Source: Candidatus Omnitrophota bacterium
GTDB lineage: Bacteria > Omnitrophota > Gorgyraeia > Duberdicusellales > 4484-171
Length of the DNA stretch: 64,000 nt
Assembly: GCA_021735655.1 (NCBI GenBank)
Contig: JAIPGM010000001.1
Coordinates: forward strand, 192,001-256,000
Direction of reading: 5' to 3'
In this document: positions 16,742-49,452 of the stretch, piece after piece
How positions within the stretch are numbered: position 1 is the stretch's first letter
Layout: each line of letters starts with the position of its first letter
Position numbers and translations under genes: made by a program
Notes under the pieces: generated by a model
What the model was told of the DNA's origin: nothing
Seen by the model: only the letters and a program-made list of their open reading frames with translations
The model's database searches: none

Positions 16742-16747
16742 AGTTAA

Positions 16748-17566: not shown

Positions 17567-17591
17567 ATAAGCAAAATTGTGAAAATTTAAG

Positions 17592-18464: not shown

Positions 18465-18467
18465 AGG

Positions 18468-20636: not shown

Positions 20637-20646
20637 AAATTTACAT

Positions 20647-26785: not shown

Positions 26786-26786
26786 T

Positions 26787-27590
26787 ATGGGAAAAATTAT
26801 AGCATTTATTAAGAAAGATTTTCAAATTTTTTTAAGTTATAAGCTATTTTTCATGTTGCGTTGGGCGGGTATTGTTATACCGGTTGTTACTTTTTATTTT
26901 ATATCTAAGTTTATCGACCAGCAGGGGAATATTGCCTTCAGCGAATATCGAGGAGGGTACTTCCCTTTTGTGGTTATAGGCTTGTCAGTATACGGCTATC
27001 TTCTTGTCTTGTTGCGTTCAGCTTCTGAAGGTATGCGGCAGGAGCAGATGTACGGAACTTTAGAGGTTATTTTTGCTACCCCGGTAAAAAGTAGTATCGT
27101 AGCAATTTCGGCAGGTTTGTGGAATAGTCTTATTGCTTTAGTTGCTATGGTGGTATGTTTGGTAACCGGAATTTTATTGTTTAAGGAGGGCATTGTTGCT
27201 TTGGATTGGTTTGCCTTATTTTTAACTTTAATTATGATTGTCGTTAATTTTTTAAGCATAGGTATATTGGCTGCTGCAGTAATAGTGGTTTGTAAAAGAG
27301 GTGATCCGATTGCTTGGTTTGCTAGTACATTCTTTGCTTTTTTTGGCGGAGTTTATTATCCAGTGAGTGTTTTGCCTAAAGGGTTTCAGAAAATATCTCA
27401 GTTTTTACCGATCACTTATGCTGTCAGGGCTTTGCGTAAAGTTATACTTGCCGGGGCAACATCTGTCGAGATAACTAACGAGTTAGTTGTGTTGTTTATT
27501 TGTGCAGTATGTTTGTTGCCTTTATCTTTAATTATTTTTAGTTATGCTGTGCGGCGAGCTAAGATGAGCGGTAGCTTATCTTATTATTAG
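26787..27590 (+). CDS. ABC-2 family exporter permease
   Basis: It has six predicted TM helices and sits immediately after its ATPase with a 1-nt gap. It has no similarity to importer permeases. Confidence 0.7.
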   Translation: MGKIIAFIKKDFQIFLSYKLFFMLRWAGIVIPVVTFYFISKFIDQQGNIAFSEYRGGYFPFVVIGLSVYGYLLVLLRSASEGMRQEQMYGTLEVIFATPVKSSIVAISAGLWNSLIALVAMVVCLVTGILLFKEGIVALDWFALFLTLIMIVVNFLSIGILAAAVIVVCKRGDPIAWFASTFFAFFGGVYYPVSVLPKGFQKISQFLPITYAVRALRKVILAGATSVEITNELVVLFICAVCLLPLSLIIFSYAVRRAKMSGSLSYY

Positions 27591-30271: not shown

Positions 30272-31510
30272 ATGAATATATGTATATTAGGTAAATATCC
30301 TCCGATACAAGGAGGGGTTTCAACTTGCAATTATTGGTTGAGCAAGGCTTTAGGGCAACGTGGACATAAGGTTTTTGTTGTAACCAATGCTGAAGAAGCT
30401 GGTTTTGAATATAGAGAGCAGATTTATCCTTCTGATGCCCGTCAGCTTGAGCCAAAAAATGTAAGAGTATTCAGTACGCAGCCTTTGAGTAGGCGTTTTA
30501 TCCCTCAGTATCAGCCGTTTATTGCTAAGCTTGCCAGCATGGCAATAGAAATTGTGAAAAAGAATAAAATAGATGTGCTTTACTCAAATTATCTGCTTCC
30601 TTATGGGGTTGCTGGTCTTTTGGTTAAGCAAGCTACGGGTGTGCCTTGGTTTTTAGATCATGCTGGCAGTGACATTACTAATTTATTTGATGAGCCAGAG
30701 CTTAGGCCTATTTTTCTTGAGCTGTTTAAAAATGCAGATTTGGTAGTTAATTCGCCCCAGGTCAAAAGCCGGTTGGTAGATTCAGGGGTTATCCCTGAAG
30801 ATAAACTATCACCTTCTATTGGAAAGATGTCTTACACTAGGGCTCTAGACGATAGTTTTCACCCTCAAGCAAAACCTTTTGATTTAAGTGATTATTTTGA
30901 TCGGTTTAACAGACGCTTACCAGTTTTTACTTTTCTAGGAAAGATTTCTCCCCTCAAAAAAACTTTTGCCTTTGTTGAAGCTGCAGCTAAATTGCCTAAA
31001 GGTAAGTTTTATCTTTTGTTTGTTACCGAAAAAGGGCGGATGCGGATTCATTTGAGGAATTTAATAAGAGAAAAGGGTTTGTTGCCTTACACTTGCCTGT
31101 TGGATTTTAAGCCGCCTTGGCTGGTACCTTCTATCATTACCGCTTCTACGGCAGTGGTTGCCCCAGAAAGCGAAGAGACTCCTTATTTGCCTGAAGGCAC
31201 TCACGGATCCAAAATAGGTTTAGAGGCAATGCTTTGTGGGCGTTGTGCGGTAATCGGAAAAGGAATGAGTAAGAAAGCTTTTTATTATGGTTGTAAAGAT
31301 AAAGAACACTTTTTGGTGGTTGATCCTCATAATATTAATACTTTTGCTAAAAAACTTAAGCTTATTGTAGATGATCCTGGTTTAGCTTATAAAATTGGAA
31401 AAAAAGCCAGGGCTGTTTGGACTGCCAGACGGAATTTTTTTGAGGCTTCCCTAGACTTGTTTGTTAAAAATTTCAAAATAGCTATCCTAAAGAATTCATG
31501 CCTAAGGTAA
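30272..31510 (+). CDS. Glycosyltransferase, GT4-like (GT-B fold)
   Basis: The N-terminus ICILGKYPPIQGGVSTCNYWLSKALGQRGHKVFVVT resembles the Glyco_transf_4 N-domain. The C-terminal domain is divergent. Confidence 0.55.
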   Translation: MNICILGKYPPIQGGVSTCNYWLSKALGQRGHKVFVVTNAEEAGFEYREQIYPSDARQLEPKNVRVFSTQPLSRRFIPQYQPFIAKLASMAIEIVKKNKIDVLYSNYLLPYGVAGLLVKQATGVPWFLDHAGSDITNLFDEPELRPIFLELFKNADLVVNSPQVKSRLVDSGVIPEDKLSPSIGKMSYTRALDDSFHPQAKPFDLSDYFDRFNRRLPVFTFLGKISPLKKTFAFVEAAAKLPKGKFYLLFVTEKGRMRIHLRNLIREKGLLPYTCLLDFKPPWLVPSIITASTAVVAPESEETPYLPEGTHGSKIGLEAMLCGRCAVIGKGMSKKAFYYGCKDKEHFLVVDPHNINTFAKKLKLIVDDPGLAYKIGKKARAVWTARRNFFEASLDLFVKNFKIAILKNSCLR

Positions 31511-32991
31511 TACTTATAAGTATTGATGGGGCTTGTTGGCCGGCAATGAATCACTTGTTTAAGAAAGGTGATTTACCGGTTTTAAGCCGCTTAGTAGACC
31601 AAGGGGTCAGCGGGACTCTTAATAATATTAATATGCTTGAGGCTGATCTTTGGGAGATTTTTGATATATACCGAGAGTATATCAAGAAGATCCCTCGTTT
31701 AGGGAGCCATTCGGATTTATCGGATTGGTTGACTTCAATGACTGGTTTTTTACCTAAGGTTCATGGAGTTATTTCCTCAACCGAAAAAGATTCACGTGGC
31801 AGAGAAATACCAGCTTCTCGAAGGACCAGGAAACGTCCGGTAGCATGGGAGATCTTGGCAAATAAAGGCAAAACAATAGGGGTAATTGGCTGTATGGGTG
31901 ATTGGCCCCCGATAGCTTTGCCTCATTATAATGTATCTAGATTTTACAATGTTGATGATATTTATTTTCGCAAAGCTAATAAGGATGCTGACAGTGGCTG
32001 GAAGCTAAACTTAGATAATCTGCATTCCCGGTTAACTTACCCGGCTAACTTAGCAAAAGAGCTGCTTAAGTTTAAGCCGGATAGTCAAATAGAGTCATTC
32101 ATTCAGAGAGGTAAGCCTTATATTAGAGGGGCTTTGTCTTATAAATTACGCTACGATAGTTTGTATTGCCAATGGGCTAAATATCTTCTTAAACGTTTTC
32201 CTCAGCCTGATTTTTTTGCCCTTTCTTTGCATGAAATACATTCCTTGTCACATCTTTTCTGGGATTGCCTGCCTCTGGCCAAGAAAAGATTTAAGGGCGC
32301 GGTTCATCGGCGTCGACAAAAAAAGTATGGCGGGATAATTGAGGATTATTATCGTTACATTGATAAAAATATTGGCGAAGTATTGAAACTGAGCGATAGT
32401 GATTCTACGGTTATGATTCTTTCTCACTACGGCATGGTCGATTCACGAATATTTAAGAAGTACATATTTATGGATAAAATTTATCATAAATTAAATTTTT
32501 TCTTTTATGATGACGGTATTGATTGGGATCGAACCAGCGTGTATGATAATGTTAATCCTTGGGGTATATACGCTGTACGAAAGGGTTTTATCCGCGGACG
32601 CAACCCCCAAAAAATATTTTTATCTTTAAGCAGGAAAATGAAAAAGATAATCACCAATAAAGGTGAGCCTTTGTTTTTGGATATATCATTTGAAAAACAA
32701 GATAATTCATTTAAAGTAGTGCCGAATTACAAGGCCATAAACTATTCGACAAAGATATTAATCAAGGGCGAGGAGATACCAGTAAAGGAGTTAGTAGATT
32801 TTAAACCGCATTATTCTATACATAATCCTGAAGGGGTTTTCATTGTCTCAAGTCGCAAGAGACAATCTTTAAAGGTTATCAAGGATAAAGTTGATTTTTT
32901 GGACATTTTGCCTACGATTTTTTCCTTTTATGGGATAAAAAAAGATCCTAAAATGTCCGGTGAGGTATTTGTAGACAGAAAAAGGAGGTAA
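31498..32991 (+). CDS. Alkaline-phosphatase superfamily protein (type I phosphodiesterase/nucleotide pyrophosphatase-like)
   Basis: The N-terminus KVILISIDGACWPAMNHL matches the Phosphodiest (PF01663) start (metal-binding Asp in ISIDG). It has a long C-terminal extension. Confidence 0.6.
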   Translation: MPKVILISIDGACWPAMNHLFKKGDLPVLSRLVDQGVSGTLNNINMLEADLWEIFDIYREYIKKIPRLGSHSDLSDWLTSMTGFLPKVHGVISSTEKDSRGREIPASRRTRKRPVAWEILANKGKTIGVIGCMGDWPPIALPHYNVSRFYNVDDIYFRKANKDADSGWKLNLDNLHSRLTYPANLAKELLKFKPDSQIESFIQRGKPYIRGALSYKLRYDSLYCQWAKYLLKRFPQPDFFALSLHEIHSLSHLFWDCLPLAKKRFKGAVHRRRQKKYGGIIEDYYRYIDKNIGEVLKLSDSDSTVMILSHYGMVDSRIFKKYIFMDKIYHKLNFFFYDDGIDWDRTSVYDNVNPWGIYAVRKGFIRGRNPQKIFLSLSRKMKKIITNKGEPLFLDISFEKQDNSFKVVPNYKAINYSTKILIKGEEIPVKELVDFKPHYSIHNPEGVFIVSSRKRQSLKVIKDKVDFLDILPTIFSFYGIKKDPKMSGEVFVDRKRR

Positions 32992-32994
32992 GTT

Positions 32995-33288
32995 ATGAAA
33001 GCCGACCAGTTAAAGGGCAAGTGCATGACTATTAACGAAGAAATTATTTCTTGGCGAGAGATCGACAAAGAGGTAGTATTTCTTAATAAACAGGAAAAAA
33101 GTTTTTACGAATTAAACAAAACAGCTGAGATCATTTGGCGCCAGTTAGCCAAAGGCGGTAAACTGACTCAGGTAATTTCTCAGGTTCAAAAGAAATATAA
33201 GAAAGTAGGTAAGCAAGACATAGAAAGAGATGTAATTGCTTTTATTGCAGATGGAATTAAGAAAAAAATATTTATTGTTAATAAATAA
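32995..33288 (+). CDS. PqqD-family peptide chaperone / RiPP recognition element (RRE)
   Basis: It is 97 aa. VVFLNKQEKSFYELNKTAEIIWRQLAKGGKLTQVISQV...DVIAFIADGI fits the PqqD/RRE winged-helix consensus (hhLN..t...h.LN.tA..IW..L.G..t...I). RBS AAGGAGG lies at 32982-32988. Its stop overlaps the start of the rSAM/SPASM gene by 1 nt. Confidence 0.7.
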   Translation: MKADQLKGKCMTINEEIISWREIDKEVVFLNKQEKSFYELNKTAEIIWRQLAKGGKLTQVISQVQKKYKKVGKQDIERDVIAFIADGIKKKIFIVNK

Positions 33289-34442
33289 TGGCTAAGAAAA
33301 AACATTTTCTTCAAAATCCATTTTTTATTATCCAATGGCATATAACTGAACGCTGTAATTGGCAGTGTAAGCATTGCTATCAGGACAAGGCGCCGGTGCC
33401 TGAACTGCCTTTTGGCAAGCTAGAAGGGGTTCTTGGCCAATGTATGGAACTGTTTAAGACTCTAAACGTTCCCGCTAAGCAAGCTTACATGCATATAGGG
33501 GGAGGAGAGCCTTTCTTGCGGAAGGATTTTTTTAAATTCTTAAAGTTGCTGAGCGTGCATAATGATTATTTAAGAATTCAGATAATGACTAACGGCTCAT
33601 TACTTACGCAGTCGGTAGTTAAAGAATTAAAAAGAATGAAGGTGAACGCAGTGCAGGTTAGCTTAGAAGGATTTGAGCAAACTAATGATCAAATAAGAGG
33701 TCCGGGAAGTTTTAATAAGGCTTTGCGGGCTATAGAGTTGCTGATAAAGAACAAAATTTCCACCAGAGTTTCGCTTACCTTGACCAGGATGAATTTAAAC
33801 GAAATAGATGATTTAGCTGTGTATCTTAAAAGCCTCGGGGTCAGGTCTTTTGGAATCCGCAGATACTTTCCTGAAGGAGAAGGTGGGCAGCTGAAGGAGT
33901 TCATGCTTTCGCCTTTAGAAATGAAAGAGTATTATCTTAGGCGTGAGGCTTTGAAGAAAAAATTAGATGTACCGGGAAAATTTTGGGTTTCTAAAGTTTG
34001 TGAAGATGCATGCTATCTAAGCAGTCAGGATCAGTCTTGTCCAAGCTGCGGTATTACTAGAGGATGTCATCTAAATATTTTTACCAACGGCGACATTCTC
34101 GCCTGTAGGCGTTGTCCGATAGTAGTTGGTAATGTATTAAAGGATAGGTTGCTTGATGTTTACTTTTCTTCCGATACCTTGTGGGCTTTGCGGAATTTAG
34201 ATAATGTCAATCCAGAATGTAGGAAATGCACCTATTTCGATAGATGCCTCGGTGGTGCTAAGTGCGAGTCTTATTCTTATTTTAATAATCCATTTGCTCC
34301 TGATCCCCAATGTTTTAGGTTATTTACCGATCTCCCGGATCCACAGAGATATAATAGGCAGGCAGAGAAAATGGAAGTACAAAAGGTTAGTGCTTTTAAG
34401 GGAGAAAAAAAGTTTACGGATGAGATTGAAGATGTGATATAA
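33288..34442 (+). CDS. Radical SAM/SPASM-domain enzyme (peptide-modifying maturase type)
   Basis: The motif is ERCNWQCKHC at ~33354-33377. The C-terminal SPASM region has seven or more Cys (CPSCGITRGCHLNIF...CRRCP...CRKCTYFDRCLGGAKC). It is flanked by a PqqD protein and a small Cys-rich ORF. Confidence 0.85.
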   Translation: MAKKKHFLQNPFFIIQWHITERCNWQCKHCYQDKAPVPELPFGKLEGVLGQCMELFKTLNVPAKQAYMHIGGGEPFLRKDFFKFLKLLSVHNDYLRIQIMTNGSLLTQSVVKELKRMKVNAVQVSLEGFEQTNDQIRGPGSFNKALRAIELLIKNKISTRVSLTLTRMNLNEIDDLAVYLKSLGVRSFGIRRYFPEGEGGQLKEFMLSPLEMKEYYLRREALKKKLDVPGKFWVSKVCEDACYLSSQDQSCPSCGITRGCHLNIFTNGDILACRRCPIVVGNVLKDRLLDVYFSSDTLWALRNLDNVNPECRKCTYFDRCLGGAKCESYSYFNNPFAPDPQCFRLFTDLPDPQRYNRQAEKMEVQKVSAFKGEKKFTDEIEDVI

Positions 34443-34479: not shown

Positions 34480-34653
34480 ATGGTTAGCCATTCGAAAAAG
34501 AAAAAAGAGAAAAACCAAGACAAAATTGCCTCTTCAGTTGCTGCGTACGAAAAACCTAAGTTTAAAAAAATTAAACTGCTCGATCCCAAAGAGGCAGGCA
34601 TTGCCGGAACTACGGCTGGCTGCGGCTGCTGCGGTTGTTGCTGTTGTTGGTAA
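34480..34653 (+). CDS. Unannotated 57-aa small ORF, candidate RiPP/cofactor precursor peptide: Lys-rich leader + Cys-rich core GCGCCGCCCCW
   Basis: Absent from the ORF track because it is under 60 aa. ATG at 34480 has AGGAG 6-10 nt upstream (34469-34473). The translation is MVSHSKKKKEKNQDKIASSVAAYEKPKFKKIKLLDPKEAGIAGTTAGCGCCGCCCCW, ending in TAA at 34651-34653. It lies 38 nt after the rSAM/SPASM gene and 16 nt before the kinase gene, on the same strand. Confidence 0.6.
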   Translation: MVSHSKKKKEKNQDKIASSVAAYEKPKFKKIKLLDPKEAGIAGTTAGCGCCGCCCCW

Positions 34654-34668
34654 TTTTCTAACTTTTGT

Positions 34669-35559
34669 ATGAGTAAATACTACAATGTAGGTTACCCTCT
34701 TGCAGGAGATTGTCGTGGAGTTATCCAAATACGTACTAAAAGTAAATACCTGTGGGACCTCTTGTGTGGTAAATATGCTATGCTTTTTGGCCGTAAGGCC
34801 TTAAGTGGAAACAATGCTATCCGACGAGATTTTTTCATAGATTTTAATTTTATCTCTGATTATCAAGGTTTAGCCAAAAAAAACAAATCTAAATCTTTAG
34901 ATTTTTCTTGCCAGTTTGATAAAAAGTCAATAATTTATAACTTGGTTACCCCTAGGGGGTCCTCATTGGAAATAAACTATTTTAAGCGTTACGCCCAAGT
35001 GGGCTTGATTGAAAAAGATCCGATGATAACTTACTTTGTTGACAGGATGATTCTTTTTACCTATTCGTTAGCTAGAATGTTTATGGTCCATGGTGCTTGG
35101 GTAAAAAGAGGTAAATCTTCATTTTTTCTCATTGGTCGCAGTGGGGTAGGTAAAACAACCATAAGTTCTTTGTTAACCAATCAAAGTAAAGATTACAAAC
35201 TTATGGATGATGACAGTCCGTTTATTTTTCAGGCTGATGACACTTTGTTTGCTGCCTCCAGAGATCAGCGGCTAGTTGAATATTCACCAAATTATTTGTT
35301 TTTTATATCGAAGAAACCGCGCTTAAAGAGTGAAGCCTGCCCTTTAAGTTCTAAAGAGTCATTTAAGAGGTTAATTGAACACTCAGACGTAATTTTTAGA
35401 AAAAATGACCCGATGACCGATTATCGTTTGGATGTCTTAAGGAAATTGGCAATGCGTTGTAAATCATATCTATTGATTAACGGCAAAGATTTGATTGGTA
35501 GCAAAGTTTTGGCTTCTACTTTATTTAATGGTATTATCAAAAGGAGAAAAAATGCGTAG
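34669..35559 (+). CDS. HprK-related serine kinase (HPr kinase C-terminal-domain-like P-loop kinase)
   Basis: SSFFLIGRSGVGKTTISSLLTNQSKDYKLMDDDSPFI is comparable to the HprK/P block vLitGdSGvGKSE..LeLi.rGhrLvaDD (P-loop plus the downstream DD). It has no N-terminal HprK domain, so it resembles the stand-alone HprK-related kinases seen in RiPP clusters. Confidence 0.7.
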   Translation: MSKYYNVGYPLAGDCRGVIQIRTKSKYLWDLLCGKYAMLFGRKALSGNNAIRRDFFIDFNFISDYQGLAKKNKSKSLDFSCQFDKKSIIYNLVTPRGSSLEINYFKRYAQVGLIEKDPMITYFVDRMILFTYSLARMFMVHGAWVKRGKSSFFLIGRSGVGKTTISSLLTNQSKDYKLMDDDSPFIFQADDTLFAASRDQRLVEYSPNYLFFISKKPRLKSEACPLSSKESFKRLIEHSDVIFRKNDPMTDYRLDVLRKLAMRCKSYLLINGKDLIGSKVLASTLFNGIIKRRKNA

Positions 35560-36277: not shown

Positions 36278-36345
36278 ATTTTCTTAACTGCATAGATAGG
36301 ATTTTGTTTATAGCATTATCCTTTTTTTACGTCTTGCCTTTTAAA

Positions 36346-37149
36346 ATGAAGAAAAACTATACAGTATCATTTATCGAAAGCGACAGTATGTGGCCGGTCT
36401 TGAGGCCTTCAGATAAGGTATTGATTAAGGCAGTATCTTCTGCTTCGTTAAGAGTAGGAGATATTATTGTTTATCGGAAAAAAGAATTTTCGGTTGCCCA
36501 CCGGATTGTCCGAGTAGTTAATAATAAGGGGTTTTCCACTTATTGGACCAGAGGTGACTTTAATTATAAGCTCGATCAGGTTTCTACTGAAAATATAATT
36601 GGTAAAATAGCTGGAGTTTATCGTGATGGCCACCTAAAGCCAGTAAGAGGTCCTGGGTGCTGCTGGCTGTTTTTTATTGTGTTTTTAGGGAAAGAGGCTT
36701 CAACCAGGGTTTTGGAAGGAATATATTCTCTTGGGTTTTTTCGTAGTTGGATTAAAAGATTGTTTCCTTTAAAGGTTTCTTATGTCGTGGTGGGGGACAT
36801 AAAAAGCAATGATGATTTTAAAAGCTTTTATCATCGGTCATTTGATTCTTTATGTGAAGGTGGAACTCAGACAGGAATTATGGCTTTGTTTAAGGGTAAG
36901 CCCATAGGTAAACTTTGGATTTTAATTGACAAAGAAGGCAGCTTTTTTTTCTATGGTCCTTATGTAAGGTTGCTTTACCGTGTGAGGGGAGTTGCTGGAG
37001 GATTGATTAAGCAAGCTGTGTGCTATCTTGAAGGCTCTGGTTTAAAAAGGTCTAAAGTGTATGCTTTTACAGGAGGTAGCCGAATCCTGCTCAACTGCTT
37101 TAGCCGAGAGGAAATAGAAGCTAGAGGAGATTTTCCAGATAAACTTTAG
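36346..37149 (+). CDS. ER/SipW-type signal-peptidase-like (S26B) domain fused to a ~150-aa C-terminal domain of unknown function
   Basis: ESDSMWPVLRPSDKVLIK contains the catalytic-Ser box SMxP. GDIIVYRKK...VAHRIVRV is a box-D equivalent with His in place of the bacterial Lys, as in archaeal/ER-type and SipW enzymes. The start is uncertain; a TTG at 36304 is also possible. Confidence 0.5.
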   Translation: MKKNYTVSFIESDSMWPVLRPSDKVLIKAVSSASLRVGDIIVYRKKEFSVAHRIVRVVNNKGFSTYWTRGDFNYKLDQVSTENIIGKIAGVYRDGHLKPVRGPGCCWLFFIVFLGKEASTRVLEGIYSLGFFRSWIKRLFPLKVSYVVVGDIKSNDDFKSFYHRSFDSLCEGGTQTGIMALFKGKPIGKLWILIDKEGSFFFYGPYVRLLYRVRGVAGGLIKQAVCYLEGSGLKRSKVYAFTGGSRILLNCFSREEIEARGDFPDKL

Positions 37150-38613: not shown

Positions 38614-39774
38614 TTAAAAAATCATCTTGAAAATGTGTTTTATAAGTCTATAGGGTATATAGAAAATTCTTAGGTGGTATTTTCTAGCTGTTGTTACACA
38701 ACGTTGGGGCAGAGAATAATACTTAGCAAATTGTTCCTGTGGTACGGTTAAAATGTATTTTAAGGGGTAGCTTATGGTGTCGTAATAGATAAATTGACAG
38801 AGGGTGTAGATATAAGGTAGATTTTCCATTCTTACTGGGGTGTAGGTAAAGCGCTGCACGATAGAAGATATTAAATATTTTTGCCAACCAGGCACTTTAA
38901 GTTTTTTCAGGAAAAATTTAAGGTCGACATCCAAAACGAATTGCATTTGATATAATAGAAGGTAGAGGCTTGCTTTGGCTTTTTCTTGTTCAGCTGCCTT
39001 TAAGATATATTCCCAGTTAAGATTTTCCTCTTTTAGGATAATCCCCAAGTCACAAATGTATTTTAAATTAAGTATTTTTCCGAACCGTCGCTGATGTAAG
39101 GCAAGGCTTAGAATAGTGTCTTCGGCGCTTAAAGCTCTAAAGGAGTATCCTGGGCCTTGGATTAGGCGCAGGCGATTCCATGCATCAGGCAATACTTTTT
39201 GCTTAAAGCGATTGCAATCTAAAGCCCAGTGCAGTTCGACTAGTGTAGCTTGGCCATTAGTTTCTTTAGTGAAAGAGAGGTGACATTGGTGCTTTCGCCA
39301 GTAAGCTTCGTCAGATCCGAGAAATTCCTTTTTATAGCCCATGGCCAGAAGAAGAAAAGTTGCTTTTTCAAAGTTTTTTTCAGTGGTGAACAGGTCTATG
39401 TCTGATGAAGGACGTATCCCAAAATGCTTGTAGTATTTATCAGGCAAAGAAAAGCCCTTAATCGGAATAATTAGGGTATCGGATTTTTCCGCTTCTTTGA
39501 GTATATTTGATAATTCAATACATAGATTTTCATGGTTAAAAATTTTTAAGCAATAAAACTTTTTATAAAGTTGTTCAAAGCCTTTCGGTATCGGGTATGA
39601 ATTTTCTTTAAGTATAACCTGAAGAAAGTGAGGTAGCTCATGGTAAAAAATAGCATAACCTAGGTTTTTTCCGTGTATGTTTTCTGCTTTGAGGCTTTTT
39701 AGGAGTAGATCACGTTGGTTTCCATAGACTATTTCCTTCGCTAGGTATTTGATTATTTTTTCTTCAGTTTTCAT
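38614..39774 (-). CDS. Nucleotidyltransferase-fold protein (minimal NTase / NTP_transf_5-like)
   Basis: GIRPSSDIDLFTTEKNFEKATFLLLAMGY matches the G[SG]x9-13DhD NTase signature (SDIDL). The ORF track extends to 39882 but would overlap the upstream rSAM gene by 86 nt. The internal start MKTEEK at 39774 is preferred, though it lacks a clear RBS. Confidence 0.5.
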   Translation of the reverse strand: MKTEEKIIKYLAKEIVYGNQRDLLLKSLKAENIHGKNLGYAIFYHELPHFLQVILKENSYPIPKGFEQLYKKFYCLKIFNHENLCIELSNILKEAEKSDTLIIPIKGFSLPDKYYKHFGIRPSSDIDLFTTEKNFEKATFLLLAMGYKKEFLGSDEAYWRKHQCHLSFTKETNGQATLVELHWALDCNRFKQKVLPDAWNRLRLIQGPGYSFRALSAEDTILSLALHQRRFGKILNLKYICDLGIILKEENLNWEYILKAAEQEKAKASLYLLLYQMQFVLDVDLKFFLKKLKVPGWQKYLISSIVQRFTYTPVRMENLPYIYTLCQFIYYDTISYPLKYILTVPQEQFAKYYSLPQRCVTTARKYHLRIFYIPYRLIKHIFKMIF

Positions 39775-39796
39775 CTTGTAGTAATTAAACTTAGTA

Positions 39797-40843
39797 TTAT
39801 AAAAATAAAGGATAAATGGTTTTGCCCGGGCATTCTTCCGGACAGGATTTTCCTTTACGAAAGGTCCGGTATTTTTCTCCATACCATATATCCTTAAAAG
39901 ATAACTTATTTATATTTCCGAGTGATTTTTTTTCGGCATAAACACAACCTAAGACTTCACCTTCTAAAGTTATAACTGATTGAACCCAAGACAGATAGCA
40001 GGGTTTTTGTTTAGTCTGGCTTTGAATTTTCTGAGGTATTTTGTTACCACTGGCAAAATTTAAGAAACTTTTAATATTGTTGGGAATTTTTATCTTACTG
40101 GAAATGCTTGAGATTTTTTCCACGAATTCTTCCTGCTCAGACTCCGGAGGAATAAGTCTTTTATTTAGTTCCGGAGTCATAAGTAGAGGTTTAAACAGCA
40201 GCTTATCTGCCGATAATTTCTGGCTAAGAGCGATCATCTCGGCAGCATTGTGGTAATTAAGATTAGATATTACGTTTACCAGAAACAAGAGAGGGTATCG
40301 TTTTTTGCCTTTTAGGGACTTTATCAGGAAGAGATTGTTTAATAAAGTATTGAAATCTTTTTTGTTTCTGGAGGGCCTGATCCTTTGGAAAGTTTCAGCA
40401 TCCGCGCAATGAAGACTTACCAGAATTTTTTTTACACCCTTTTCTATTAGCTTGGCTATATTAGTTTTATCAAGATAAAAGGCATTGGTCATTAGCTCAA
40501 CATTGATTTTTTGCTCACCGGCTATGCTTATAAGTTTAAACAGATCGGGATGCATTAGTGGTTCACCTTCTCCGGTAAATAAAATAGTGTTTACCTGAAG
40601 GGTTTTTAATTGCTTAACCAGGGCAGAAAATGTATCACAGGAGATATGCTGATCCGGTTTTTTTTTGGATATCGCCCCTGAATGATACCAACACATTTCG
40701 CAAGCCATGTCGCATTTATTGGTTATATCAAGAGTTATCTTAAGCGGTCCGGTAAAAGCTCTGCTTCGGGAAAGTATTCCTAGGAGGCGGAGCATATTGT
40801 GAGAATTTGAAAGATAGTGTAGATTGTTTTTTAACGAAAACAT
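39797..40843 (-). CDS. Radical SAM enzyme with SPASM/twitch-like C-terminal Cys cluster (same family as 12887/17592/62098)
   Basis: The motif is NKCDMACEMC (~40690-40730 on the - strand). The C-terminus is KPCYLSWVQSVITLEGEVLGCVYAEKKSLGNINKLSFKDIW...KSCPEECPG. Confidence 0.8.
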   Translation of the reverse strand: MFSLKNNLHYLSNSHNMLRLLGILSRSRAFTGPLKITLDITNKCDMACEMCWYHSGAISKKKPDQHISCDTFSALVKQLKTLQVNTILFTGEGEPLMHPDLFKLISIAGEQKINVELMTNAFYLDKTNIAKLIEKGVKKILVSLHCADAETFQRIRPSRNKKDFNTLLNNLFLIKSLKGKKRYPLLFLVNVISNLNYHNAAEMIALSQKLSADKLLFKPLLMTPELNKRLIPPESEQEEFVEKISSISSKIKIPNNIKSFLNFASGNKIPQKIQSQTKQKPCYLSWVQSVITLEGEVLGCVYAEKKSLGNINKLSFKDIWYGEKYRTFRKGKSCPEECPGKTIYPLFL

Positions 40844-41059
40844 AAGGTGATGTAATATGAGTACAATTAAAAATTATTATATCATTTTTAGCCCCGTAAA
40901 GACAGGGTTTTGAAGGGGATTTCTAGGCTTAAGACAGGCTATTGTGTTATGGTCATTAAGTATATATAATATATATTCCCAGGTAGATACACTAGTATTT
41001 TTCATAATAGTGCTAATTTTAAAGTTTTTAGTAGAATCTAACAAAGAGCTTGAGTATTT

Positions 41060-41911
41060 ATGAGCAAACCTTTATTATCGGTGATTATCCCAGCTTTTAA
41101 CGCCGAAATTTACATTGAAAAATGTTTGCAACCATTGATTAAGAATCTGTCTGATGGTTTAGAAGTAATTGTTGTCGATAATGGGTCAGTTGATAAAACA
41201 GCAGCTATTGTAACTGAGGGATACCCTCAGGTAACTTTGTTGAAAAATCAGGAAAATCTCGGTGCTTGTAGGGCTAGGAATCAAGCTATCGAAGTCTCAT
41301 CTGGAGAATGGGTTTTGACTCTTGATTGTGATGTGGTTTTGGAAGATGACTTTATTTTAAAAGTATCTCAGTTGATAGATGATCTGCCGTCTGATCGTAT
41401 TGGAATAATCCAGCCAAAAATATTGCAAGCTGACAAAAAAACTATTGATTCCTGTGGAATCCATCTTTCCTGGTTGAGGAGATTCTATGATCTTGGGAAG
41501 GGGAAAACTGACTCCGGCCAATTCAATGAATCTATCTATGTTTTCGGCGCCTGCTCAGCCTGCGCTCTTTATCGGCGGACGATGCTTGAGGATTTAAAAG
41601 AAAGTGGAGAATACTTTGATCAAAAGTTCTTTTTTTTAGTGGAAGATGTGGACTTGGCCTGGCGAGCAAATAATAGGCAGTGGCAATCATTCTTTTTTCC
41701 TTTTATTTCTTGTTGTCATATCGGAAAAAGTTCAGGTTTTCCTAAGAAATTCCGGCAGTATCTTTGTTTTCGCAATCGCTACTACACAATAGCTAAAAAC
41801 GAGGGGTTGGGTAGGTATGCCGGAAAAATTTTACCTGTGATTATATATGATTTTCCTAGGTTGGTTTATTTGGCTTTAACTAATAAATATTTCTGGACTA
41901 GAAAATTGTGA
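41060..41911 (+). CDS. Glycosyltransferase family 2 (GT-A, inverting)
   Basis: The N-terminus LLSVIIPAFNAEIYIEKCL and VVDNGSVDKT are typical of GT2. TLDCDVVL provides a DxD-like motif. Confidence 0.8.
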   Translation: MSKPLLSVIIPAFNAEIYIEKCLQPLIKNLSDGLEVIVVDNGSVDKTAAIVTEGYPQVTLLKNQENLGACRARNQAIEVSSGEWVLTLDCDVVLEDDFILKVSQLIDDLPSDRIGIIQPKILQADKKTIDSCGIHLSWLRRFYDLGKGKTDSGQFNESIYVFGACSACALYRRTMLEDLKESGEYFDQKFFFLVEDVDLAWRANNRQWQSFFFPFISCCHIGKSSGFPKKFRQYLCFRNRYYTIAKNEGLGRYAGKILPVIIYDFPRLVYLALTNKYFWTRKL

Positions 41912-43407
41912 AAACCGAAAACGGAATTACAAACCGGCGTGATTTTTGGATAAAGATTTCTCTGTTCTTTTTTGCTCTTTTTCTGCTTAGGGTATATGGT
42001 CTTAGCCGGCATGAGTTTTGGTATGATGAAATATACTCGGTTGATTTTGCCCGTTCTCCCTTGCTCAGTTGGAACGCCCCTCTTTATTGGATTATTATTC
42101 ATTTTTGGTCAAAGTTATTTGGTTTGTCTGAATTCAGCCTGCGTTTTCCTTCTGCTATTTTTAGTCTGGCTACTTGCGTAGGGACCTATGTTTTGGGAAA
42201 GATGATATTTAGCCGGAGGATCGGGCTTTTGTCAGCTTTGATCATTGGCTTGTCACCTTTCCACCTCTGGTATGCTCAGGAAGCCAGGAATTACAGCCTG
42301 GTAACTTTTTTGGGAATATTTTCTTCTTATTTATTTTTTCGGGCTCTTAATGAGAGAAAAACAATATTTTGGGTTTACTTTGTAGTAATTTCTTTGCTTG
42401 GCGTGTACACAAACTACTTTTATTTGTTTTTGTTGTTTTTTCAAGGGGTCTATTTTGTTTGCTTCCGGGGGGTCAGATTCAAGCTTAAAGAAATATGGCC
42501 TTTTTTAATAGTTCTTGCCGGATTTATGTTTTATTTTCCGGGATTTATCAGTAAGTTTGCTTTTGTAAAATTAGGTTTTTGGGTGCCTAAGCCAGAGCTT
42601 GGGGCACTACTTATTAGTTTTGAGAATTTTCTTTTGGGTTATAGCGGAAACAGATTTTTTTATCTAGTGGCTAGTTTAATAACTTTAGTTTGTATTGGTG
42701 CGTTATTATATAAAGTAATAAAGGATAAGGCTATTTGCCAGGGGGTATTTTTTTGTTTTTGTTTATCGTTTGCTCCGATATTATTGATATTTTTGTTTTC
42801 CAGTATTTTTTTCTCAATTTATTTAGATCGGGGCCTGATGTTGTTCAGTCCTTATTTTTATATTCTTCTTTCTTTGGGATTGTTTTATTTGGTTCGACGC
42901 TGGAGAATCATTGTTTTTATTTCTCTTGTTTTTTTACAGATAGTTGCTATTTTCGGATTTTATCAGGATCGGATGTATCCGCCGCTTAAGCATCATATCG
43001 GAACTTATCTTAAAAAACCGGTTAAACCGGCCATAACTTTTCTTGAGGACAATGTCCGAGAGGGTGATATTGTTGCTTATACTAATCCTTCGGCCATACG
43101 TTCTATGGAATATTATAGCCAGCGGAGATTAGCTGATTTTTATATGTTTTTTGATCCGAGCTTGTCGGAATCATCTTGGCAAAGGCCTATCCAGGAAACA
43201 GCCACTATAGTTCCATATAATAAAATAAGAGGCTTACCTGCTGAACGTATTTGGGTTATTTTTAATGATTGGGGTAGAACCGGTGGCTTGGATGAACATT
43301 CAAAAATAGTAAAGGATTGGATGGATGAAAATCTTACCTTGAAAACTTCCCGGGAATTTGATGGCTTGTGGGTATTGGAGTATACAAAGAAAGTCATTAG
43401 CCCATAG
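41908..43407 (+). CDS. GT-C fold membrane glycosyltransferase, PMT/ArnT-like (GT39/GT83 family)
   Basis: It has more than ten predicted TM helices. The first periplasmic loop carries the family hallmark RHEFWYDEIYSVDFA (DE motif). The ATGA overlap with the upstream gene indicates coupling. Confidence 0.7.
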   Translation: MKTENGITNRRDFWIKISLFFFALFLLRVYGLSRHEFWYDEIYSVDFARSPLLSWNAPLYWIIIHFWSKLFGLSEFSLRFPSAIFSLATCVGTYVLGKMIFSRRIGLLSALIIGLSPFHLWYAQEARNYSLVTFLGIFSSYLFFRALNERKTIFWVYFVVISLLGVYTNYFYLFLLFFQGVYFVCFRGVRFKLKEIWPFLIVLAGFMFYFPGFISKFAFVKLGFWVPKPELGALLISFENFLLGYSGNRFFYLVASLITLVCIGALLYKVIKDKAICQGVFFCFCLSFAPILLIFLFSSIFFSIYLDRGLMLFSPYFYILLSLGLFYLVRRWRIIVFISLVFLQIVAIFGFYQDRMYPPLKHHIGTYLKKPVKPAITFLEDNVREGDIVAYTNPSAIRSMEYYSQRRLADFYMFFDPSLSESSWQRPIQETATIVPYNKIRGLPAERIWVIFNDWGRTGGLDEHSKIVKDWMDENLTLKTSREFDGLWVLEYTKKVISP

Positions 43408-45091: not shown

Positions 45092-46288
45092 ATGTTTTTG
45101 TTTCTTTCGTTGTTGCCTTTAATGGTTGTGTTTTATTGGTTCGGCCTGCCCCGAAAGTGGCGAAGCTTATTTTTATTTGCAATGAGCCTTGTGTTTGCCG
45201 CGTCCATTAGCTTAAGGTATACGTTCTATTTTCTTTTCAATATAGTGATAGTTTATGTCGGCGGAGCCTCAATGCGTAAAACCGACAAAAGAAAAAAAAT
45301 TATTCTTAAATTGTTATTAGTTTGGCTGGTTGGTAATATCTGCTTTTTCAAATACATTGGTCTACTAGCTGTTAGCATGTCGAGGATATCTTGGTTTGCA
45401 TCAATGCCAAAAATACCAATGCCGGGGATAGTTTTACCTTTAGGAATTTCTTATATAATATTCAGGCTCATACATTACATTGTTGAGGTTTATAGAAGGA
45501 ATATGCCCGAGAGTTCCTTTAGTGATTTCGGACTATATATTTTATTCTTTCCGACATTTTTAGCTGGTCCGGTTGAAAGATTTCATAATTTTCATTCCCA
45601 AACTAGAGCCCAGAAAAGTATTTCCGCGGGCACCAGCCTTGGCGATATCAATTACGGATTATTTCGCATTATTTGCGGTATGGTTAAGAAATTCATTATC
45701 GGCGATAGTTTAGCAAGATTGATAATGCCGTTGCTTAATTCACCGCAGAATTATTCGCGTTTGCTGGTGTTGGTGTCTATATACGGTTTAGCTGTACGAA
45801 TCTATATGGATTTCTCAGGTTATACTGACATGGCTATTGGAATAGCTAGATTGTTTGGATACCGGATTGTTGAGAATTTTAAAAAGCCCTTTTTTCAAAA
45901 AAATATAGCTTTATTTTGGAGAAATTGGCATATATCAGTGTATACCTGGATAAGAGATTATTTCTTTTTTCCATTTTTCGGCCATCGGGCTTCCAGTGTA
46001 AAAGTTTATGCTGGCGTGTTTTTTTCTATGCTTGTATTTATGTTATGGCACGGAGGAAACTTTAATTTTTTTATTTTAGGAATTTATCATGGCTTGGGTC
46101 TTTTAACCTGGTATGGGTTTCAGGAGATAAAAAGAAAACATCCTGCGATTCGTCGCTTGACCGTCAAGCCTTATCTGGACCCGTTGGCTATTTTTTTTAC
46201 ATTTAGTTTTGTAAGTTTCGGTTTTATTGTTTTCGCTTTGGACATTAATTGTGCAAAGGCTATTTTACAAAGAGTATTTTTTGTTTAG
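45092..46288 (+). CDS. MBOAT-family membrane O-acyltransferase (DltB/AlgI-like)
   Basis: FWRNWHISVYTWIRDYFFFPF contains the invariant MBOAT His and is comparable to the DltB/AlgI block FWRRWHISLSSWLRDY. A second conserved His lies in LWHGGNFNF. Confidence 0.8.
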   Translation: MFLFLSLLPLMVVFYWFGLPRKWRSLFLFAMSLVFAASISLRYTFYFLFNIVIVYVGGASMRKTDKRKKIILKLLLVWLVGNICFFKYIGLLAVSMSRISWFASMPKIPMPGIVLPLGISYIIFRLIHYIVEVYRRNMPESSFSDFGLYILFFPTFLAGPVERFHNFHSQTRAQKSISAGTSLGDINYGLFRIICGMVKKFIIGDSLARLIMPLLNSPQNYSRLLVLVSIYGLAVRIYMDFSGYTDMAIGIARLFGYRIVENFKKPFFQKNIALFWRNWHISVYTWIRDYFFFPFFGHRASSVKVYAGVFFSMLVFMLWHGGNFNFFILGIYHGLGLLTWYGFQEIKRKHPAIRRLTVKPYLDPLAIFFTFSFVSFGFIVFALDINCAKAILQRVFFV

Positions 46289-46307
46289 CTAAAAAAAGGA
46301 GTCACAA

Positions 46308-46544
46308 TTGAAGGACAAAATAAGAAACTTTATCATTAGCAATTTTATGTTTGATGAGGGTAGTTTAGGAGATGATGATTTACTATTTGAGACAGGGATC
46401 ATAGATTCTATGGGATTTATCAAACTGCTCGCTTTCATTGATAAGACATTTAATCTATCTATGGATATGAGTGAAATAAGCATCGATAATTTTAATACTT
46501 TAAACAATATTGTTAAGAGCTTAGAGCGTAAGATTAATAGGTAA
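46308..46544 (+). CDS. DltC-like acyl/peptidyl carrier protein (78 aa)
   Basis: It is 78 aa. FETGIIDSMGFIKLLAFI is comparable to DltC FEEGIIDSFQTVGLLLEI, which carries the phosphopantetheine-attachment Ser. It lies between the MBOAT and adenylation genes. Confidence 0.7.
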   Translation: MKDKIRNFIISNFMFDEGSLGDDDLLFETGIIDSMGFIKLLAFIDKTFNLSMDMSEISIDNFNTLNNIVKSLERKINR

Positions 46545-46571
46545 TTATTTTATAAAAAGGAGATTCGGAAT

Positions 46572-47717
46572 ATGAATTTTTCCTGGAGTAAAAATCAAGA
46601 AGAACTCAAAAGGGCGGCAACAAAATTTGCGGCGGCCAAACTCAATGATGATATTATTCAAAGGGACAAGAACGGTAAATTTTCCTTAGACGGCTGGAAG
46701 GCCTGCGCTGACTTTGGTCTCCAGGGCATGTTAATGCCCAAAAAGTATGGTGGATTGGGATTTGGGTTACTTGATATAGTAGCTATCTTGGAAGGTATAG
46801 GCTACGGATGTAAAGATAATGGACTTATATTTTCAATCAATGCCCATATTTGGGGGGCAGAGGCGCCGATTTATCATTTTGGTACAGAAACCCAGAAGAA
46901 AAAATTACTTCCCGGTTTTTGTAACGGTAGCTTAATTGGGGCAAATGCAATGACTGAACCCGGTTCAGGTTCGGATGTCTATTCCCTTAGAACTACCGCT
47001 GTTAAAAAGAATAATTATTACACTTTGAACGGAACCAAGATCTTTGTCACCAATGCCCCTTTGGCTGATATATTTATTGTTTACGCTCGTACCGCTAAGT
47101 CTCGAGGATTCTCCGGTTTATCTTGCTTTTTAGTCGAGAAAGGTACCAAGGGATTAGTTATAGGTGAAAATTTCGAAAAAATGGGGCTTAGGACCAGTCC
47201 GATGTCGGAAGTGATTTTTAATAATTGTAAGATACCGAAAAACAATTTAGTCGGTCAAAAAGGTTCAGGAGCCTTGGTTTTTAATGATAGCATGGAATGG
47301 GAAAGGGTTTTTATTTTAGCTAATTGTGTAGGTATTATGGATCGCCAGCTGAAATATTGCATAGAATACGCAAATTCCAGAAAGTTGGATACCAAGCCAA
47401 TCGGTAAATACCAATCCGTAGCCAATAAGATTGTAGATATCCAGTCGAACCTTGAAGTAAGCCGCTTGCTTCTTCATAAGGCCGCTTGGCTTAAGAGCTG
47501 CAAAGAATCGGCATCAATGGCTTCAGCAATGACAAAATTGTATCTTAGCGAAGCTTATATTAAAAGTATTCGCTGTGTCATGGATATCTTTGGTGGATAT
47601 GGATATATGACTGAGTATGAATTGGAGCGCGAATTGAGAGATGCTCTAGCGAGCACTGCCTATTCGGGAACATCGCAGATACAAAAAAATATCATTGCCG
47701 GTCTTAGCGGATTATAA
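46572..47717 (+). CDS. Acyl-CoA dehydrogenase-family flavoenzyme
   Basis: It has the ACAD N-, middle- and C-domain signatures GANAMTEPGSGSDV, GTKIFVTNA and the catalytic-base region DIFGGYGYMTEYELERELRDA. Confidence 0.8.
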   Translation: MNFSWSKNQEELKRAATKFAAAKLNDDIIQRDKNGKFSLDGWKACADFGLQGMLMPKKYGGLGFGLLDIVAILEGIGYGCKDNGLIFSINAHIWGAEAPIYHFGTETQKKKLLPGFCNGSLIGANAMTEPGSGSDVYSLRTTAVKKNNYYTLNGTKIFVTNAPLADIFIVYARTAKSRGFSGLSCFLVEKGTKGLVIGENFEKMGLRTSPMSEVIFNNCKIPKNNLVGQKGSGALVFNDSMEWERVFILANCVGIMDRQLKYCIEYANSRKLDTKPIGKYQSVANKIVDIQSNLEVSRLLLHKAAWLKSCKESASMASAMTKLYLSEAYIKSIRCVMDIFGGYGYMTEYELERELRDALASTAYSGTSQIQKNIIAGLSGL

Positions 47718-47718
47718 T

Positions 47719-49302
47719 ATGGAATACCGATTACCGACATTATTGCGGCAAAGCGCAAAGAGTCAACCTTTTAAAGTTGCCATTAGACAGGGCGAAGAAG
47801 AACTTTCATATGAAGATTTGAATTTGTTGAGTGATAAGTTGGCCTCTTGCTTAGTCGATAAAGGCCTAAAGGTTGGCGACAGAGTAGGAATATATATAGA
47901 TAAATCGATTGATGCTGTTATTGCTATATTTGGTATTTTAAAATCGGGCGGTTGTTATGTTTCTTTGGATCCTTTGGATAATTCCCGGAGGCAGACCTTA
48001 ATTGTTAAGGATTGTTCATTGAAATATTTGATTTCTTCTTCAAAAAAGTTACCATCTCTGGTTAAAATAATACGCGGTATAGATAGTCTAGAGTATATAT
48101 TTGTAGTTGACGCCAACAAAAAAGAAAGTAGCAGGGATTGGTGCGACATTAAGATGGTTTTTAAAAAGGAGATATTTAATTCAGATGTTAGCATTTCCCC
48201 AAGGTCGAGAAGATTAAAAGACAACAACTCGGCATATATACTTTATACTTCTGGTTCAACCGGAAAACCCAGAGGAGTAGAGATTAGTCATCGGGCTTCA
48301 CTTGCTTTCATAAATTGGGCCAATAAGTATTTTAATATTACTAAAGCCGACATTGTGGCGGCTCAGTCTCCGTTTCATTTCGACCTTTCCATTTTTGATA
48401 TTTTCGTCAGCATAAAGGCCGGCGCGACCATTTGTATTGTTCCTCAGTCTTTATCAATTTTTCCTAAATCTTTGGCAGATTTTATCGAGAGCCAGAAAAT
48501 TAGCACTTGGTATTCTACACCTTCGGTTTTAATCAAGCTTCTTTACTACGGTAATCTTCAGAAAAGGAATTTATCAGCCCTAAAAAGAATTATTTTCGCC
48601 GGTGAGGTATTTCCCCCAAAGCATCTGCATAAGCTAATGAAGATATTGCCGGGAGCTAAATACTATAATTTATACGGACCTACCGAAACGAATGTCTGTA
48701 CTTGTTATTTTTTAAAGCGTATTCCTAAGGTAGATAAACCGATCCCGATAGGGTGTCCTTGTCGCGGCCAATATATTTTCATAGTTGATAAGGCTGGCAA
48801 TCTTGTTAAAAACGGTCAATCGGGCGAATTATGTGTTAGCGGACCCACACTTATGCAGGGATACTGGAATAATTCTCAGGCAACCGAGAAAGCTATGATT
48901 AAGCTCAATTTTTTAAATAAAGCCAGTAAGGTATATAGAACTGGTGATTTGGCCAAAATTAGAAAAAACGGAGATATTCTTTATTGTGGCCGTAATGATG
49001 AAATGTTAAAGGTAAGGGGATATCGGGTTGAGCCGGCTGAAATTGAAGCAGTTTTGCATTCATGTCCGGGAATAAAAGAAGCAGCTGTGGTAGGAGTCTC
49101 AGCTGATGCAGCTGGGGACAGAATCAAAGCCGTGATTAGCCTAAAAACTAACTATTCTGTTTCTGAGAGTAAGGTAAAGCTTTTTTGTTCCAGGCAGTTG
49201 CCTTCCTATATGGTTCCTGCGGAAATATTTTTTAAAAAGTCGTTACCTCGGCTTTCTACCGGAAAAATTGATAGGAAGAAATTGAAAACAATTCGAAGAT
49301 GA
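47719..49302 (+). CDS. AMP-dependent adenylation enzyme (DltA-like carrier-protein ligase)
   Basis: Adenylation core motifs are present: YTSGSTGKPRGV (A3), YGPTETN (A5), YRTGDLAKI, GRNDEMLKVRGYRVEPAEIE (A8) and LPRLSTGKIDRKKL (A10). The ATG at 47719 is preferred over the overlapping ORF-track start 47695. Confidence 0.8.
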   Translation: MEYRLPTLLRQSAKSQPFKVAIRQGEEELSYEDLNLLSDKLASCLVDKGLKVGDRVGIYIDKSIDAVIAIFGILKSGGCYVSLDPLDNSRRQTLIVKDCSLKYLISSSKKLPSLVKIIRGIDSLEYIFVVDANKKESSRDWCDIKMVFKKEIFNSDVSISPRSRRLKDNNSAYILYTSGSTGKPRGVEISHRASLAFINWANKYFNITKADIVAAQSPFHFDLSIFDIFVSIKAGATICIVPQSLSIFPKSLADFIESQKISTWYSTPSVLIKLLYYGNLQKRNLSALKRIIFAGEVFPPKHLHKLMKILPGAKYYNLYGPTETNVCTCYFLKRIPKVDKPIPIGCPCRGQYIFIVDKAGNLVKNGQSGELCVSGPTLMQGYWNNSQATEKAMIKLNFLNKASKVYRTGDLAKIRKNGDILYCGRNDEMLKVRGYRVEPAEIEAVLHSCPGIKEAAVVGVSADAAGDRIKAVISLKTNYSVSESKVKLFCSRQLPSYMVPAEIFFKKSLPRLSTGKIDRKKLKTIRR

Positions 49303-49452
49303 AAAAAAACCATAAAACACTCATGGTAACAATTGTTCTCTGTGGTATTATATTTATAATCAGCTATATTTTATATTTTTTTATAAAGCCTCCGCTTGAA
49401 TTTATATATCAACAATTCTAGGATGGCGAATCTTTTTTAAAGGCATGCTATT

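Follow-up and report, generated by a model that had tools for sequence, protein, structure and literature searches.

A radical SAM/nucleotidyltransferase gene pair as the putative tailoring part of a conserved peptide system in Omnitrophota

Nucleotidyltransferases (NTases) of the Pfam family PF14907 (NTP_transf_5) are common in loci for peptides made on the ribosome and modified after translation (RiPPs) and for surface polysaccharides, with genetic data for one member only, PsmN. In the pseudomycoidin cluster, the HprK-like kinase PsmK phosphorylates the C-terminal Ser of the peptide, and PsmN is needed in vivo for the addition of one or two hexoses of 162 Da each onto this phosphate; the PsmN D134A/D136A mutant is inactive (PMC6993621). 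Here we analyse a 64,000-nucleotide stretch of a Candidatus Omnitrophota bacterium (metagenome-assembled genome GCA_021735655.1, contig JAIPGM010000001.1, positions 192,001 to 256,000), hereafter the window, which encodes a PF14907 NTase next to a radical S-adenosylmethionine (SAM) enzyme. On the minus strand, the pair makes up a small operon that probably is a tailoring part of a conserved Omnitrophota system, in which glycosylation genes are coupled to a RiPP pathway of the radical SAM type. By analogy with PsmN, we propose with moderate confidence that the NTase would extend a kinase-installed phosphate on the precursor peptide encoded at 34480-34653 with a sugar or a nucleotide. The initial annotation had noted that NTases of this kind recur in lasso clusters, which is borne out by metagenomic, Halopiger and Paenibacillus clusters and by the literature (PMC8498205). 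It had also called them uncharacterised, which no longer holds for the whole family, given the PsmN data (PMC6993621).

The operon and its borders are as follows, in window coordinates, where GT stands for glycosyltransferase and ORF for open reading frame:

39797-40843, minus strand: radical SAM enzyme, 348 aa, with a CxxxCxxC motif (C44, C48, C51) and an abbreviated four-Cys, probably Twitch-like auxiliary domain
38614-39774, minus strand: PF14907 (NTP_transf_5) NTase, 386 aa, with K106-G107-F-S109, D125-I-D127, E180-L-H182-W183, E218-D219 and H227
39775-39796, minus strand: intergenic gap of 22 nt
39797-39882, minus strand: extension of the longest ORF, overlapping the 3' end of the radical SAM gene and not translated as NTase
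40844-41059: divergent intergenic region of 216 nt that separates the GT2/PMT_2 operon from the radical SAM/NTase operon (ORF map)

Both minus-strand ORFs are confirmed on the ORF map, and each of the two proteins is 100% identical to an NCBI entry. The pair had been described as convergent, which applies only with respect to the plus-strand cassette, whose stop at 38594 faces the NTase stop at 38614; the two genes themselves lie in tandem, separated by the 22-nt gap, and diverge from the GT2 gene that begins at 41060. No terminator was detected in the 19-nt convergent gap, the counts of the promoter and terminator scans not exceeding those in shuffled sequence, and the consensus promoter matches at 40844-41059 are weak and likewise no more numerous than in shuffled sequence.

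The NTase matches the PF14907 model with 105.1 bits (E 5.8e-30, cut-off 31.2, residues 101-313 of the longest, 422-aa ORF), which confirms the assignment first made from the SDIDL signature. This signature lies within the motif RPSSDIDLF, where, counting residues from Met 39774, D125 is encoded at 39402-39400 and D127 at 39396-39394. In an alignment of 24 homologs, K106, G107, R121, D125, D127, H182, E218, D219, H227 and W254 are invariant, and position 180 is either E or D. The pattern hG[GS]...DxD...E is that of Pol-beta-type nucleotidyltransferases, and the fold and the third acidic residue agree with this class. In the AlphaFold model (predicted local distance difference test, pLDDT, 85), a small alpha/beta core is placed between helical N- and C-terminal domains. 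The enzyme had been termed minimal, a description that fits only this Pol-beta-type core (approximately residues 100-215) and not the protein with its two flanking domains. The Omnitrophota NTases additionally share a specific C-terminal extension (IPQEQFAKFY region). No membrane segment is predicted, and a profile search with the NTase returned no match among PDB sequences. On the strength of its conserved motifs, the NTase is predicted to be a catalytically intact PF14907 enzyme.

The NTase might also be read as a self-immunity, resistance or toxin-type protein of the LnuA/ANT or MenT kind that merely accompanies the cluster and has no biosynthetic role. The resemblance is limited to 13-19% identity confined to the core; LnuA and ANT(2'')-Ia, with which no sequence similarity was detectable in the PDB profile search, comprise about 160-175 residues, are devoid of large helical N- and C-terminal domains and occur in another genomic context. 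An antitoxin-like partner is absent, and over dozens of loci the NTase keeps its synteny with biosynthetic genes and its fusions to them. We regard such a role as very improbable.

The 86-nt overlap of the two genes (39797-39882) is present only in the longest-ORF track, where the NTase spans 38614-39882 (422 aa). It is an artefact of choosing the longest ORF, and Met 39774 is the true NTase start, in agreement with the internal start proposed at the outset. The identical NCBI protein has 386 aa, i.e. starts at Met 39774, as do all 23 of the 23 aligned homologs at the equivalent Met, and the radical SAM-NTase spacing in orthologous loci is 10-20 nt. The 422-aa ORF could be argued for from an AAGGA motif 9 nt upstream of ATG 39882; it was discarded, as this motif falls within the conserved FKDIW codons of the upstream radical SAM gene and the homologs start later. 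The missing Shine-Dalgarno motif at 39774 says little, because such motifs are scarce in the window and precede only 13 of 37 starts.

The radical SAM protein carries the motif DITNKCDMACEMCWYHS, also written DITNKCDMACEMC, with C44 at 40714-40712 and C51 at 40693-40691; C44, C48 and C51 are invariant among the orthologs. The Pfam models Radical_SAM (PF04055, 56.5 bits) and SPASM (44.4 bits) both match above their cut-offs. The earlier description of an rSAM/SPASM-like enzyme with CDMACEMC is supported to this extent, but a full seven-Cys SPASM domain is not: instead of the seven-Cys, two-cluster motif, the SPASM region has four Cys only (C282, C300, C334 and C338). A frameshift or truncation artefact was ruled out, as the aligned orthologs all end at the same place, about 10 residues beyond CPxxC; across the wider alignment, C282, C300 and C334 vary little or not at all. 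Judged from sequence, the auxiliary domain is a genuine, short and conserved stub, probably Twitch-like, and the enzyme is not a full SPASM cross-linker. Compared to the Twitch enzymes BlsE, BtrN, MoaA and SkfB, the protein is only 18-24% identical and is still matched by the Pfam SPASM model, and it scores 67 bits against the 170-bit cut-off of the NCBIfam family N_Twi_rSAM.

Matches of the radical SAM enzyme among PDB sequences comprise BtrN, MoaA, BlsE, Tes and SkfB, the closest fold match being BlsE, which acts on a nucleoside-sugar. This model-based ranking would tilt slightly towards enzymes acting on sugars or nucleotides and cannot decide the substrate. The protein may be a further enzyme that modifies the peptide, or else one that alters an attached sugar or nucleotide. 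It is an accessory specific to its clade, predicted to bind one auxiliary cluster, and always accompanies the NTase.

To survey the NTase neighbourhoods, one genome per species was scanned. This yielded 47 loci, all in genomes labelled Omnitrophota or bearing generic or Planctomycetes-type names, that were annotated with hidden Markov models (HMMs) built from the window proteins, the kinase HMM being iterated; L numbers denote loci here and below. Neighbours were counted in the 25 non-redundant NTase loci flanked by 5 kb or more to the left and to the right. A radical SAM gene of any kind is found near the NTase in 20/25 loci, an HprK-like gene in 18/25, PqqD in 16/25, PMT_2 and GT2 in 14/25 each, and an S26-like peptidase in 13/25. 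As a rough specificity control, 20 loci anchored on unrelated radical SAM genes were annotated with the same HMMs and gave no PqqD, HprK or NTase match. When metagenomes were scanned separately with the radical SAM enzyme as anchor, its orthologs turned up in L057-L062. With genomes and metagenomes pooled, the NTase and cassette genes are present in each of the eight sufficiently flanked loci that have a radical SAM ortholog (window, L009/L062, L010, L011/L061, L054, L058, L059 and L060). Seven pairs of orthologs come from contigs of equal length, and the supposed association of the pair with the PqqD, radical SAM and kinase genes is in this way seen in other genomes as well.

The arrangement of these loci is variable. 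The radical SAM gene lies next to the NTase gene in the window, L010, L011, L059 and L060; it comes first in all but L060, where the order is reversed. L009 has the full gene content of the window in rearranged form, with PMT_2 between the radical SAM and NTase genes; the order GT1-phosphodiesterase-radical SAM ortholog is found in L009 and L062, and GT1-phosphodiesterase also in L058. The converse association fails, the close NTase homologs of L001 and L002 having no radical SAM ortholog. The most frequent gene directly upstream of the NTase is PMT_2 (16/46 loci), often overlapping it, and arrays of the form GT2-PMT_2-NTase or PMT_2-NTase are seen in L012, L018, L023, L025, L028, L029, L032-L035, L038, L043, L046, L053 and L060. 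The pair had been thought to close the cassette, which does not hold: the GT2 (41060) and PMT_2 (41908) genes beyond it are the most frequent direct neighbours of the NTase elsewhere.

The surrounding genes of the window are the following:

30272-31510, plus strand: GT1/GT4 glycosyltransferase (Pfam)
31498-32991, plus strand: type I phosphodiesterase/nucleotide pyrophosphatase family protein (Pfam)
32995-33288, plus strand: PqqD (Pfam, NCBIfam)
33288-34442, plus strand: full radical SAM/SPASM enzyme (Pfam/NCBIfam; top match ACGX-system family, below cut-off)
34480-34653, plus strand: candidate precursor, 57 aa, with leader AYEKPKFKKIKLL and, at its end, core GTTAGCGCCGCCCCW
34669-35559, plus strand: HprK/ScmC-like P-loop protein, presumed peptide kinase, with GRSGVGKTT and a weak HprK_rel_A match
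between the kinase homolog at 34669 and the peptidase at 36304, plus strand: LolA-like lipoprotein (HMM scan)
36304-37149, plus strand: SipW-type S24/S26 peptidase-like domain with a GNAT-like C-terminal domain (TIGR02228, 67.6 bits, above the 51.85 cut-off)
from 37161, plus strand: B12-radical SAM enzyme (HMM scan)
41060-41911, plus strand: GT2 glycosyltransferase (Pfam)
41908-43407, plus strand: PMT_2 family GT-C glycosyltransferase (Pfam)

Beyond the radical SAM/NTase pair, the window encodes GT2, two PMT_2 GT-C enzymes and MBOAT. The RiPP part of the system would consist of PqqD, the SPASM enzyme, the Cys-rich precursor, the HprK/ScmC-like kinase, the S26-type peptidase and the B12-radical SAM enzyme, and the glycosylation part of GT1, the phosphodiesterase, GT2 and PMT_2. 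Lasso machinery was not found, with no Asn_synthase or Transglut_core3 match among most ORFs of at least 110 aa at 26108-50748. Orthologs of the window kinase bear the precomputed annotation PF27840 ScmC/Hpr_kinase_C. The protein at 36304-37149 is a candidate leader peptidase, and its combination of SipW and GNAT-like domains suggests, from domain content, that leader cleavage could be coupled to N-acetylation of the new N-terminus. Its ortholog in L059 (3511-4380, minus strand) has Peptidase_S24/S26 and Acetyltransf_1 matches, and it is from this ortholog, not from the window protein itself, that the GNAT match came.

Fusions of a radical SAM domain with an HprK/ScmC-like domain were seen in eight Omnitrophota loci (L006 6445-8409, and ORFs of about 650 aa in L022, L032, L035, L036, L047, L048 and L050). 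Because of these fusions, the presumed kinase may work in a physical complex with a radical SAM maturase.

The candidate precursor belongs to a small-ORF family of 44-63 aa with a K-rich N-terminus, a [YW]xKPx[LIFM] leader motif and cores rich in Cys and in Ser/Thr, for example GCGCCGCCCCW (window) and GCGCCSGCCSACCSGCSSL (L059). The precursor-like ORFs, which in the other loci occupy the position equivalent to that in the window, are located at:

window 34480-34653, plus strand
L009 15727-15861, minus strand
L011 13917-14069, minus strand
L046 17673-17834, minus strand
L058 6547-6714, plus strand
L059 6208-6399, minus strand
L001 15565-15741, plus strand

Homologs with a [YW]xKPxh leader are found in L001, L009, L011, L046, L058, L059 and L055. 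No NCBIfam family matched the precursor-like small ORFs. We take the [YW]xKPx[LIFM] leader motif to resemble the WxKPxh of PqqA. The cassette very probably makes a ribosomal peptide.

A second precursor-like family, with the leader KPKW[GS]KPKLIILIRGKPEE and Cys-containing cores, was observed in NTase loci that have no ortholog of the window-type radical SAM enzyme:

L022 5735-5929, 9143-9355 and 9455-9640: three copies
L032 12043-12231: one ORF
L048 3282-3473: one ORF

In the route that we propose for the window peptide, PqqD would present the precursor, and the HprK-like kinase would phosphorylate a Ser or Thr residue of the core (e.g. T45/T46). The NTase, with a nucleoside triphosphate (NTP) or nucleoside diphosphate (NDP)-sugar, would then form a phosphodiester- or pyrophosphate-linked sugar or nucleotide adduct, to be elaborated or resolved by the neighbouring GT and phosphodiesterase enzymes, while the radical SAM enzyme would introduce a second peptide modification or alter the attached sugar or nucleotide moiety. 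The phosphodiesterase, GT1, GT2 and PMT_2 fit phosphodiester and sugar chemistry, without defining it. Each chemical step is inferred, from gene identities, start, motifs, folds, co-conservation and fusions that are observed. We favour this PsmN-like model because of the NTase/kinase/PqqD trio found across phyla, the fusions of the NTase to peptidases and the homology to a Paenibacillus lasso NTase. When aligned with hhalign, the profile of the Omnitrophota NTases matches the lasso-cluster NTase of Paenibacillus cellulosilyticus with a probability of 99.7% (E 3.3e-25, 257 columns), with D135/D137 of its DVD motif aligned to D125/D127 of the window protein. The profile search returned no Bacillus member of the NTase family; Bacillus and Priestia plasmid NTase matches were considered as stand-ins for PsmN and rejected, as these are not lasso clusters.

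The peptide had initially been suggested to be nucleotidylated, for example adenylylated, in addition to being cross-linked. A nucleotidylated intermediate or product is possible, but direct addition of adenosine monophosphate (AMP) is less supported than a phosphate-dependent decoration, because PsmN is required for adding hexose onto the phosphate installed by PsmK and the window has a kinase homolog. In its full form, this alternative holds that the NTase nucleotidylates (e.g. AMPylates) a peptide hydroxyl independently of the kinase, and that the radical SAM enzyme serves as another SPASM cross-linker. PsmN, in contrast, adds a 162 Da hexose and requires the kinase-installed phosphate (PMC6993621), a kinase homolog co-conserved across phyla would be superfluous for direct O-nucleotidylation, and the radical SAM enzyme is without the second SPASM cluster. 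We consider this alternative unlikely.

Outside Omnitrophota, distant PF14907 members are found in both peptide and polysaccharide settings. Two metagenomic lasso clusters combine a PF14907 NTase with GT2, PqqD, B2, Asn synthase and a ScmC/HprK-like gene; on a Halopiger plasmid the NTase adjoins PqqD, B2 and AsnB, and on a Crinalium plasmid it occurs with GT-A genes and an HPr kinase. The Paenibacillus lasso cluster, whose layout is that of the pseudomycoidin cluster, encodes NTase, cyclase, a precursor ending in Ser, HprK-like, PqqD, B2 and ABC proteins. In a Desulfobacterium sp. metagenome-assembled genome (L055, 3991-12580), GT4, radical SAM/SPASM, NTase, Bac_transf, ScmC/Hpr_kinase_C, PqqD and an S24-like peptidase are encoded together with a small WEKPRL peptide and a PEP-CTERM protein, in a locus of the PEP-CTERM/exopolysaccharide (EPS) type. 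Some EPS-locus copies of the module may act on unannotated small ribosomal peptides, a hint that current annotation overlooks the peptides that they serve.

In four loci and further proteins, the NTase (N-terminal) is fused to an S24/S26 peptidase (C-terminal):

L006 3705-5630: NTase-S24/S26 fusion
L012 6733-8481: NTase-S24/S26 fusion
L013 9769-11430: NTase-S24/S26 fusion
L027 8058-9899: NTase-S24/S26 fusion
proteins P0033 and P0066-P0068: NTase-S24/S26 fusions

These parallel the NTase-B2 peptidase fusions described in lasso clusters (PMC8498205). They bear on a further alternative, which assigns the NTase, perhaps with the radical SAM enzyme, to the glycan side and has it act on a sugar, a nucleotide-sugar or a polyprenyl-phosphate-linked GT2/PMT_2 intermediate, for instance by a LicD/FKRP-like transfer of a phospho-alcohol, so that the peptide is not the NTase substrate. 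The fusion of the NTase to leader-type peptidases, also in lasso clusters (PMC8498205), speaks against it, as do the persistence of the NTase/kinase/PqqD trio beyond Omnitrophota, in loci without PMT_2, and the genetics of PsmN, which point to a peptide-borne product (PMC6993621). A role on the glycan side is, in our view, doubtful.

Several observations weigh against the phosphate-dependent, PsmN-like model. The closest adjacency of the NTase is to PMT_2 and not to the kinase; in some NTase loci (L004/L005, L023, L043 and L044), glycan genes are present but the 10 kb around the NTase contain neither PqqD nor a kinase or radical SAM gene, and the setting of an Azospirillum NTase homolog is a plain EPS locus. 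With 16 bits, the window kinase homolog stays far below the HprK_rel_A cut-off of 200. The lasso kinases target a C-terminal Ser, and the window target cannot be such a residue, because its precursor ends in Trp. The link to PsmN runs through the Paenibacillus lasso homolog as a proxy and through Pfam membership, PsmN itself is without demonstrated in vitro activity, and its hexose possibly comes from a host enzyme (PMC6993621, PMC11912497).

A bolder version, which we consider quite improbable, sees in PqqD, HprK-like kinase, NTase and S26 peptidase a general device that would activate a phosphopeptide with a nucleotide ('NDP-peptide'), to be joined via a phosphodiester to a sugar, surface glycan or polyprenyl carrier by GT2, PMT_2 or Wzy-like enzymes, with the BlsE-like radical SAM enzyme remodelling the sugar. 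If true, phosphodiester-linked peptide-glycan conjugates would be expected both in Omnitrophota and, in other phyla, from PEP-CTERM/EPS loci.

Some further features of the window flank the cassette. An ABC-2 type transporter pair is encoded at 26108-27590 (plus strand); a homolog of the permease occurs in L047 (207 bits), and its gene family is found in seven NTase loci. The window contains no ortholog of an ABC exporter family (578 aa) that is present in 26 NTase loci; matches there are at the level of the nucleotide-binding domain only. Because this exporter, common elsewhere, is absent from the window, the ABC-2 pair may be the exporter of the system. Upstream of the cassette, there is a run of very large ORFs (1155, 788, 1284, 722 and 1052 aa; 7073-23805, plus strand), of which only the first was seen to have an ABC ATPase-like segment. 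After the PMT_2 genes, MBOAT, an acyl-CoA dehydrogenase, an AMP-binding enzyme and a GDSL-lipase are encoded at 45092-50748 (plus strand), which looks like a surface-polymer acylation set; L001 has a GDSL gene near its NTase too.

Compared to the SynChlorMet and HprK-related kinase A/B systems (TIGR04248-04251, TIGR04352/04355), the window shows the same combination, two radical SAM/SPASM enzymes being encoded with one PqqD-like and one HprK-fold, ScmC-like protein. The window proteins stay far below the equivalog cut-offs, with 21.6 against 100 for ScmD, 105 against 400 for ScmE, and 84.9 and 55.9 against 400 for ScmF, and there is no ScmC match for the window protein. To our knowledge, the definitions of these uncharacterised families include no NTase, S26 peptidase or GT-C partners. 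We found no paper describing the kinase/NTase/PqqD module with radical SAM peptides or in Omnitrophota.

Like the window, the PsmN/PsmK system has an enzyme of the uncharacterised NTase family with a DxD motif, encoded with an HprK-like kinase and a PqqD-type protein. However, the PsmN/PsmK cluster is a lasso cluster, whereas the window is without lasso cyclase (Asn synthase) or B2 protease, and its peptide is predicted to be matured by radical SAM/SPASM and B12-radical SAM enzymes, unlike pseudomycoidin. The Omnitrophota NTases are, unlike PsmN, coupled to PMT_2/GT2. With one precursor, one kinase and one NTase, the locus offers a compact test system for the function of PF14907. Taken together, these comparisons depict the kinase/NTase/PqqD trio as a portable module rather than a lasso speciality, which also serves radical SAM peptides and which in Omnitrophota is coupled to GT-C/GT2 glycosylation genes and repeatedly fused to leader-type peptidases.

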